Part shown: piece after piece, positions 43,605-43,871 of the stretch
Layout of the letters: every line of letters starts with the position of its first letter
Numbering within the stretch: the first letter of the stretch is position 1
Assembly: GCA_051649245.1 (NCBI GenBank)
Contig: JBOFGS010000012.1
Location: 104,510-168,509 of the forward strand
From: Brevinema sp.
GTDB taxonomy: Bacteria > Spirochaetota > Brevinematia > Brevinematales > Brevinemataceae
Direction: 5' to 3'
DNA length: 64,000 nucleotides
Notes under the pieces: model-generated
Databases searched by the model: none
Told to the model about the DNA's origin: nothing
The model's input: only the letters and a program-made list of their open reading frames with translations
Position numbers and translations under genes: made by a program

Positions 43605-43632
43605 TTGACATGTAATTTCATTTCTGTTATTA
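43605..43632 (+). promoter_or_regulatory. Sigma70-like promoter on the plus strand (TTGACA-16-TATTAT, or 19 nt to TATAAT)
   Basis: TTGACA is at 43605-43610 and TATTAT at 43627-43632, with TATAAT at 43630-43635. No ORF lies downstream. Confidence 0.45.
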
Positions 43633-43638
43633 TAATTA

Positions 43639-43871
43639 TGGTTAAATCTTAGTAAATTAAAAATAGTTTGTTTTCTATCTTATGCTTTTAAAATAAATGA
43701 TACAGAATTATCAACGAATAATTCTTTTTTATTTTAAAAGTACATTTTTTCACTTGTTTTTGTACCGATTATTTAGTAAATTTGTATTAATTGCTCATAG
43801 CAGTTTGTATATTTTGACGAATGATCGGTATTAGATAGAAATATTTAAAGACTGTCTTGTTAAGATTTAAC
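43639..43871 (+). ncRNA. Candidate structured RNA (about 230 nt) with a three-way junction, unknown family
   Basis: The helices are mutually nested. P1 is 43639-50/43860-71 (12 bp perfect). P2 is 43672-79/43832-39 (8 bp). Hairpin A is 43684-94/43729-39 (11 bp) with an inner stem 43703-10/43717-24 (8 bp). Hairpin B is 43761-70/43821-30 (7 Watson-Crick pairs plus wobbles). It starts where the upstream promoter would initiate. Confidence 0.4.

Follow-up and report, generated by a model that had tools for sequence, protein, structure and literature searches.

An element of ~235 nt at positions 43639-43873 of a 64-kb stretch of Brevinema DNA (contig JBOFGS010000012.1 of assembly GCA_051649245.1; hereafter the window) folds far beyond chance when read as plus-strand RNA. 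We put at about even the chance that it is, as predicted here, an independently transcribed, species-restricted gene for a structured non-coding RNA. The feature itself is real and statistically exceptional, and it is a candidate orphan small RNA (sRNA) outside all curated families. A first-pass annotation of the same DNA had proposed a novel structured RNA at this site, built from nested helices that meet at a three-way junction close to a promoter. That reading is partly supported by the present analysis, in which every check that could be run favours a structured RNA on the plus strand. As a lineage of host-associated spirochaetes, Brevinema is uncultured and has received little study; to our knowledge no regulatory RNA has been described for it.

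Predicted fold and transcription signals of the element

The nested helices were recovered by reading of the sequence, by a repeat finder and in the minimum free energy (MFE) fold. All four helices named at first pass (P1, P2 and hairpins A and B) were found again with coordinates shifted by 0-2 nt (Table 1). The plus-strand RNA from 43639 to 43873 reaches -64.8 kcal/mol, compared to -33.8±3.6 kcal/mol for 200 dinucleotide shuffles (z = -8.54), none of which folded as well (0/200), bearing out the earlier rough estimate that such an arrangement is unlikely by chance. The 425-nt unit extending to the downstream terminator gave a z value of -7.75. The predicted ensemble shows little ambiguity, and pair probabilities of the named helices are about 0.8-1.0, except for the G.U extension of P1 (0.4-0.75). 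In a GC-corrected 235-nt sliding fold over both strands of the 64 kb, only a terminator cluster at 1.5 kb is more over-structured than the element, which ranks second. A search of the whole window for partners of the 5' arm region returned 43833-43873 as the best one (-26.0 kcal/mol), followed by the next non-self site at -22.6 kcal/mol.

Hairpin A by itself folds with -15.1 kcal/mol and is followed 2 nt downstream by a run of six U residues (CA-U6), with which it looks like a terminator. Hairpin B, with -25.2 kcal/mol by itself, contains six G.U pairs, one A.C opposition and U.U mismatches. The junction is branched as first proposed, but the linkers of 1-4 nt described for it do not hold throughout, given that hairpins A and B are separated by 19 nt (43743-43761), the longest accessible segment of the element.

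Upstream of P1, the promoter motifs TTGACA and TATTAT reported at first pass are present, but their spacing is 17 nt instead of 16 nt, and an extended -10 TG motif accompanies them, giving a score of 11/12 (TGt-TATTAT). The pattern TTGACA-N14-TGN-TATAAT, with at most one mismatch, occurs five times in the 64 kb against an expectation of 0.16, namely at tRNA-Lys/Asn, at tRNA-Gly, at tRNA-Thr, at one protein gene running off the window and at the element, whose promoter resembles that of the neighbouring tRNA-Thr. The predicted transcription start coincides with the first base of P1, so that a single terminal helix would hold both the start and the end of the RNA. Closure of both ends in this manner is the usual design of stable RNAs.

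Two candidate ends were found. The weak one (43873-43908) may be either a weak terminator or a processing site. The strong one (44013-44051) is the first strong stop for plus-strand read-through (~415 nt), and its hairpin is conserved in a second strain of the species and partly in another Brevinema locus (L005). The predicted promoter, the terminator candidates and the lack of credible coding potential are those of an independent sRNA gene.

The two strands of the element do not fold equally well. The minus strand reaches -43.5 kcal/mol (z = -5.51), and a fold of the element with DNA parameters gives z = -5.56. On the plus strand, 85 pairs include 11 G.U pairs, compared to one A.C opposition as the symmetric case. 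The energy difference between plus and minus strands is -21.3 kcal/mol, while shuffles of the same composition gave -10.1±3.8 kcal/mol (P≈0.007). Because this difference exceeds what composition would give and G.U pairs far outnumber A.C oppositions, the asymmetry favours selection on the plus-strand transcript, an argument of moderate weight when taken alone.

Conservation, relatives and coding potential

The second strain (strain 2) is represented by a fragmentary metagenome-assembled genome (MAG) of the same species, GCA_051649145.1. One of its contigs (L023) spans the spacer together with the ankyrin genes and stops at window position 43640, and another (L020) extends from 43817 into sbcCD. 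Over the promoter block and the element's 3' third taken together, the strains agree at 161 of 162 positions, compared to a neutral divergence of ~6-8%, while the more distant spacer differs by 4.5-7.1%. The sole change, in the promoter block, turns the -10 box into a perfect TATAAT in strain 2. The probability of observing at most one change in 162 nt is ~1e-4 at a rate of 7%, 3e-3 at 5% and 2e-2 at the coding-DNA rate of 3.6%. On this alignment, the promoter and the 3' third form a conserved island in an otherwise scrambled spacer, as would be expected of a functional unit under purifying selection, and the variable segment at 43909-43985 is probably outside the functional unit. An assembly artefact was considered and rejected, since arms that are imperfect and contain G.U pairs do not resemble chimeric palindromes and the second assembly independently confirms the 3' third.

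Table 1 Coordinates of the element, its surroundings and the segments compared between the two strains (window numbering; ORF, open reading frame)
Feature	Position	Strand	Description
AT-rich DNA upstream of -35	43571-43604	+	left edge of the block conserved in the two strains
Sigma-70-type promoter	43605-43633	+	TTGACA (43605-43610), 17 nt, TATTAT; extended -10 TG at 43625-43626
Predicted transcription start (G)	43640/43641	+	7-8 nt past -10, from promoter geometry
P1	43639-43651/43861-43873	+	13 bp perfect; 17 bp with G.U (43639-43655/43857-43873); pair probability ~1.0 in the perfect part
P1b	43663-43669/43849-43855	+	7 bp, 2 G.U; pair probability 0.7-0.84; absent from the first-pass annotation
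P2	43672-43680/43833-43841	+	9 bp perfect; pair probability 0.8-0.99
Hairpin A, outer stem	43683-43697/43728-43742	+	15 bp, 13 perfect
Hairpin A, inner stem	43704-43711/43718-43725	+	8 bp, loop CAACGA
A-B linker	43743-43761	+	19 nt, U-rich, CAUUUUUUCACUUGUUUUU; unpaired probability 0.7-1.0
Hairpin B	43762-43831	+	70-nt rod, 29 pairs in five segments
3' arms of P2, P1b and P1	43833-43873	+	as in the MFE fold
3' tail	43873-43908	+	8-bp weak hairpin, then A/U-rich run; -4.9 kcal/mol; right edge of the conserved block
Variable spacer	43909-43985	+	unrelated sequence in strain 2
Bidirectional hairpin	44013-44051		18 bp perfect, A-run/T-run flanks; terminator of tRNA-Thr (-)
Ankyrin-repeat ORF	42216-43127	-	left neighbour of the spacer
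tRNA-Thr(UGU)	44071-44143	-	right neighbour of the spacer
sbcCD	44321-48178	+	beyond tRNA-Thr; own promoter-like site at 44255-44284
Far-left spacer	43128-43479		92.9% identity between strains
Immediate left flank	43480-43570		68% identity, 57 gap columns
Promoter block	43571-43640		69/70 identical
3' third of the element	43817-43908		92/92 identical (including hairpin B 43817-43831 and the 3' arms)
Immediate right flank	43909-43985		~140 nt unrelated in strain 2; 55% identity, 61 gap columns
tRNA-sbcCD spacer	44144-44320		95.5% identity between strains
Three flanking genes			96.3-96.7% identity; third codon positions 5.9-8.3% divergent

The element was compared with the 4227 models of Rfam 15 at the gathering threshold and, for slices of 1251 nt and 286 nt, at E<=10 with relaxed filters. 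Only the four tRNAs of the window were returned at the former threshold, and nothing meaningful was found in the element at the latter, the best scores of 14.8-18.8 bits against thresholds of 50 being at chance level. Among the families so covered, transfer-messenger RNA (tmRNA), RNase P RNA and signal recognition particle RNA gave no match in the element at E<=10, and ARAGORN, which also detects tmRNA, returned only the four tRNAs in the window. The earlier view that the element falls into no known RNA family is hence upheld at gathering and permissive thresholds alike.

No second copy of the element was detected in the 64-kb window or in ~250 kb of other Brevinema DNA (nhmmer among the methods used). 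For the comparison of syntenic sites, an SbcCD alignment led to seven Brevinema loci, and B. andersonii and others were reached via their proteins. Upstream of tRNA-Thr, the other Brevinema carry protein genes or short spacers. Blastn gave no match in phages, and its one match in plasmids, AT-rich and 40 nt long, is at chance level; viral contigs contained neither of two patterns derived from the element, and a scan of the JGI metagenomes with one 20-mer hit a single unrelated GC-rich contig by chance. The literature on Brevinema with ankyrin and on spirochaete 6S RNA offered nothing usable.

The first-pass annotation had seen no ORF at this site; in this it was mistaken, as a 45-codon ATG ORF lies inside the element (43697-43834, plus strand). 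No Shine-Dalgarno sequence is found upstream of it (UUUUAAAAUAAAUG), while the neighbouring genes have GGAG-type sites. A search of 5.8 billion proteins returned no homologue of the 45-AA product, and neither Pfam nor NCBIfam contains a family matching it. Downstream of the element, a small ORF considered as potentially conserved was discarded, since the two strains have entirely different sequence there. A riboswitch or cis-regulatory leader is likewise not indicated, as the next features are the strong terminator and then tRNA-Thr on the opposite strand, and sbcCD has its own promoter-like site. No site complementary to the linker 43743-43761 occurs elsewhere in the window with up to three mismatches, and a target search with the unpaired linker and the 5' arm gave nothing convincing beyond the intramolecular partner.

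Possible action and rival explanations

If the element is a structured RNA gene, the strong sigma-70 promoter at 43605-43633 would initiate transcription at ~43640, and the first 17 nt of the transcript would pair with 43857-43873, so that both ends of the molecule would be held together by a terminal helix, the way they are in stable RNAs. Enclosed by it, P1b and P2 would lead to a junction bearing the long hairpins A and B. The mature RNA would most likely measure ~233-270 nt, from 43640 to between 43873 and 43908, and read-through to 44013-44051 would yield ~415 nt. Such a molecule may serve as a stable, exonuclease-protected scaffold that acts in trans via a few accessible surfaces, which would bind protein or A-rich mRNA segments; these are the apical loops (CAACGA and CAU), the internal A/U loops and the U-rich linker of 19 nt at 43743-43761. 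Because hairpin A is built like the terminators of this genome, some transcripts may terminate near 43752, where hairpin A and its U6 run could end a fraction of them to give a form of ~112 nt. The fold predicted for this short form leaves its 5'-terminal 43 nt almost unpaired, while the 3' arms (43833-43873) would sequester them in the full-length RNA, a speculative two-isoform arrangement of self-masking. A wider proposal, which we consider rather unlikely, is that the element represents the founding member of an undescribed class of abundant, stable, Y-shaped regulatory RNAs in Brevinemataceae, driven by a tRNA-grade promoter beside an ankyrin island and made in two isoforms (~112 nt and the self-masking full-length form).

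If true, a strongly expressed 235-nt RNA outside every Rfam family would constitute a new structured RNA class and offer a handle on regulation in gut symbionts, next to an island of ankyrin-repeat genes that varies between strains and species. Bacterial genomes contain many orphan sRNA candidates of this kind, and the present value of the element, found in one species so far, is that of a well-documented lead rather than a surprise.

Several observations count against a structured RNA gene. Strain 2 has a gap of 176 nt (43641-43816) precisely at the core, and conservation thus covers the promoter and the 3' third only; moreover, the abrupt borders between identity and unalignable DNA are what a recent exchange or insertion of a cassette would produce as well. 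At other Brevinema loci the extended -10 promoter class precedes tRNA genes and also some protein genes, so that the pattern marks strong promoters and not exclusively stable-RNA genes. Hairpin-prone DNA is common in this genome, as seen in its long perfect terminator hairpins. The element is absent at the syntenic site in five other Brevinema genomes, in which tRNA-Thr-sbcCD is kept, and no search returned a homologue from outside the species in which covariation could be looked for. Neither a target, nor a protein partner, nor a motif indicating a mechanism was found, and the element contains no CsrA-type GGA motifs.

Among known RNAs, 6S RNA (ssrS, RF00013) offers a close parallel. As proposed for the element, it is a stand-alone gene of ~200 nt with a strong housekeeping-type promoter, its long interrupted closing helix corresponds to the 33 bp in three segments of the element and its terminal rod to hairpin B, with a discontinuity between the two in both cases, and its primary sequence would be hard to recognise in an AT-rich genome. 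Unlike 6S RNA, however, the element has no large two-sided central bubble, as its junction measures 1 nt on the 3' side and is occupied on the 5' side by the 60-nt hairpin A (pair probability at least 0.97) and the 19-nt linker. Neither the gathering score nor a cut-off of E<=10, for which filters were relaxed, produced a 6S match. Given the failure of both the Rfam model and the defining bubble, the element does not belong to 6S RNA. A second comparison is with the intrinsic terminators of this genome (1495-1530, 1654-1730, 40124-40157 and 44013-44051), with which the core stem of hairpin A, the A-rich and T-rich arms and the U run are shared. These are simple hairpins at gene ends, whereas the element is a nested, multi-branched, promoter-proximal structure of 235 nt with pairs spanning 209 nt. 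By analogy, the element would seem most like a stand-alone stable sRNA.

The first rival to be weighed, possible though unlikely, is that the palindrome is a matter of DNA and has no RNA function, being either a solitary or decayed miniature inverted-repeat transposable element (MITE) or a pile-up of terminator hairpins and inverted duplications produced by template switching in AT-rich, hyper-variable spacer DNA, with a fortuitous or incidental promoter. A decayed MITE-like element was already the alternative named at first pass, and it is retained here in weakened form. The element ends in inverted repeats of 13 bp without mismatch (TGGTTAAATCTTA/TAAGATTTAACCA), a trait of bacterial MITEs such as the Correia/NEMIS elements of Neisseria and the Rickettsia palindromic elements, and its arms of ~42 nt are roughly 80% complementary. 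With those MITEs it also shares its size of ~235 bp, its AT-rich composition, its intergenic position, the potential to form a long hairpin when transcribed, and its restriction to one lineage with absence from the syntenic site of relatives. Good folds are obtained for DNA (z = -5.6) and for the minus strand (z = -5.5), and the genome is rich in long perfect hairpins. Between the strains the surrounding spacer is in flux: one segment is replaced, a hairpin loop is flipped and indels measure 49-66 nt.

Unlike these mobile elements, however, the present one is single-copy in the 64 kb and in the ~250 kb of other Brevinema DNA and shows no target-site duplication, the flanks (...ATAATTA| and |ATACAGC) containing no adjacent direct repeat. 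Neutral decay of a palindrome would give G.U pairs and A.C oppositions equally, whereas 11 are observed against 1, an asymmetry beyond composition. Furthermore, the block conserved between the strains takes in the promoter, its left edge being 68 nt ahead of the inverted repeat, and the predicted +1 is exactly where the left repeat starts, neither of which is a feature of a MITE. Both strain-2 contigs stop at or inside the element, as assemblies do at repeats, but this break is weak evidence of a repeat because the MAG is fragmented everywhere (broken every 2-3 kb) and the gap falls in the most AT-rich DNA of the locality (19% GC).

A second possibility, which we regard as very unlikely, is an mRNA resembling those of type I toxins, which a helix between its 5' and 3' ends would lock and for which 3' processing and refolding would be needed before translation. 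The toxin mRNAs of hok/sok and of aapA1/IsoA1 from Helicobacter pylori are locked by such 5'-3' long-distance interactions. The element resembles them in its terminal helix around a small ORF, its paired start codon and its short independent transcription unit. The 45-codon ORF is rich in F, L, I and Y, lies wholly inside P2 and has its AUG paired in hairpin A; a strong promoter is combined with a 5'-3' closing helix; and the locus is lineage-restricted, as is often the case for type I loci. In contrast to hok/sok and aapA1/IsoA1, however, the element has no Shine-Dalgarno sequence, clear transmembrane peptide, antisense RNA gene or family match. K, R, H or S residues recur every 6-12 positions, which leaves no clean transmembrane helix, and a T-rich frame yields hydrophobic-looking composition of this kind by default. 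The ORF has no homologue, no Pfam or NCBIfam match and is not called as a coding sequence (CDS) in the NCBI annotation of the spacer. No convincing conserved antisense promoter was seen, the best minus-strand candidate (43923..43894) being weak and having its -35 in strain-variable DNA.

Less probable still is a DnaA-related or origin-type function of the DNA, that is, an AT-rich, hairpin-prone architecture for unwinding or protein binding at a switch of gene orientation. The 1187-nt spacer contains four DnaA-box-like 9-mers with at most one mismatch, all on the plus strand, where 0.42 would be expected (P≈0.001); they are at 43374, 43902, 44032 and 44211 (TTATCTACA three times and TTATCAACA once). 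Genes to the left of the spacer are ~85% on the minus strand and those to the right mixed with plus predominant, the GC skew is ~0.02 to the left of it but ~0.085 to its right, local GC content is at its lowest in the spacer (19-25%), and in B. andersonii sbcCD is 6.4 kb from dnaA. However, no dnaA gene is present in the 64 kb, two of the four boxes are not conserved in strain 2, none of the four is inside the element, and the skew keeps its sign. Neither a box cluster nor a consistent skew switch was found at the locus in five other Brevinema, nor beside dnaA of B. andersonii, and both the G.U asymmetry and the alignment of promoter and P1 would be left unexplained. As a separate observation, L005 has a perfect TTATCCACA within its tRNA-Thr terminator hairpin.

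Equally remote is the reading that the minus strand encodes an extended, structured 5' leader for the divergently oriented ankyrin gene, transcribed from near 43923-43894, since the promoter-like site there (43923..43894, 10/12), a minus-strand fold better than chance and an ORF start (43127) with no other obvious strong promoter are set against a fold weaker by 21 kcal/mol with all G.U-dependent helices lost, a terminator-like hairpin between element and ORF (43317-43290, then U5), a better minus-strand promoter at 43460..43432 and a -35 of the 43923 site in DNA not conserved between the strains.

Genomic setting of the element

The spacer that contains the element is 940 nt long and, at 19-25% GC in a window of 31% GC, the lowest-GC DNA of the neighbourhood. 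The ankyrin and SbcCD proteins on its two sides carry consecutive NCBI accessions (MGL4562600.1 and MGL4562601.1), and the NCBI annotation therefore places no CDS in the spacer.

On the right, SbcD (Mre11-like phosphoesterase) and SbcC (Rad50-like ATPase) are fused in one ORF of 1285 AA residues (44321-48178). Its closest database match is a 96% identical protein labelled 'MAG: Brevinema sp.', after which identities drop to 52-56%. The fusion is kept at full length across Brevinema (13 full-length relatives, 38-52% identity), and more remote fused matches are found in Bacteroidota and in Petrotoga/Thermotogae records. One contig with a Brevinema-like sbcCD, MDSP01003684.1 of GCA_001998525.1, has GC-rich DNA unlike that of Brevinema at positions 1-150, which may be a chimeric or host-derived end, the assembly coming perhaps from a eukaryote host.

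On the left, the interval from tRNA-Gly to tRNA-Thr (37702-44070) differs among Brevinema species. Here it contains four ankyrin-repeat ORFs, an ORF of 208 AA residues with a signal-peptide-like N-terminus and the element, while the same interval of L005 (8943-9749), in which the tRNA-Asn/Lys/Gly...Thr order is the same as in the window, holds one unrelated ORF of 174 AA residues alone. The element thus belongs to a tRNA-bounded island that varies between species and looks like one of host-interaction genes, and no integrase is visible between tRNA-Gly and tRNA-Thr. Within this island, the hairpin at 43290-43317 keeps its stem in both strains with an inverted 4-nt loop (TCCT vs AGGA). On the minus strand it is followed by a U5 run and sits between the promoter-like site at 43460..43432 (11/12) and the ankyrin start, suggesting that this region could give rise to a short minus-strand RNA or an attenuated leader.

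Each of the three tRNA transcription units of the window is preceded by the motif TTGACA-17-TGnTAnAAT on the minus strand (34646-34674, 37715-37743 and 44166-44194), and that of tRNA-Thr is conserved in six other Brevinema loci. These tRNA promoters supply a usable consensus for strong promoters in the genus. Finally, perfect hairpins of 16 bp (1495-1530) and 35 bp (1654-1730) lie between the convergent ORFs 643-1503 (+) and 1747-3804 (-), with a z value of -11.6. Perfect hairpins extended by A-tracts and T-tracts are also present at 40124-40157 and 44013-44051, and hairpins of such unusual length, perfectly paired, appear to serve as bidirectional terminators in this genome.

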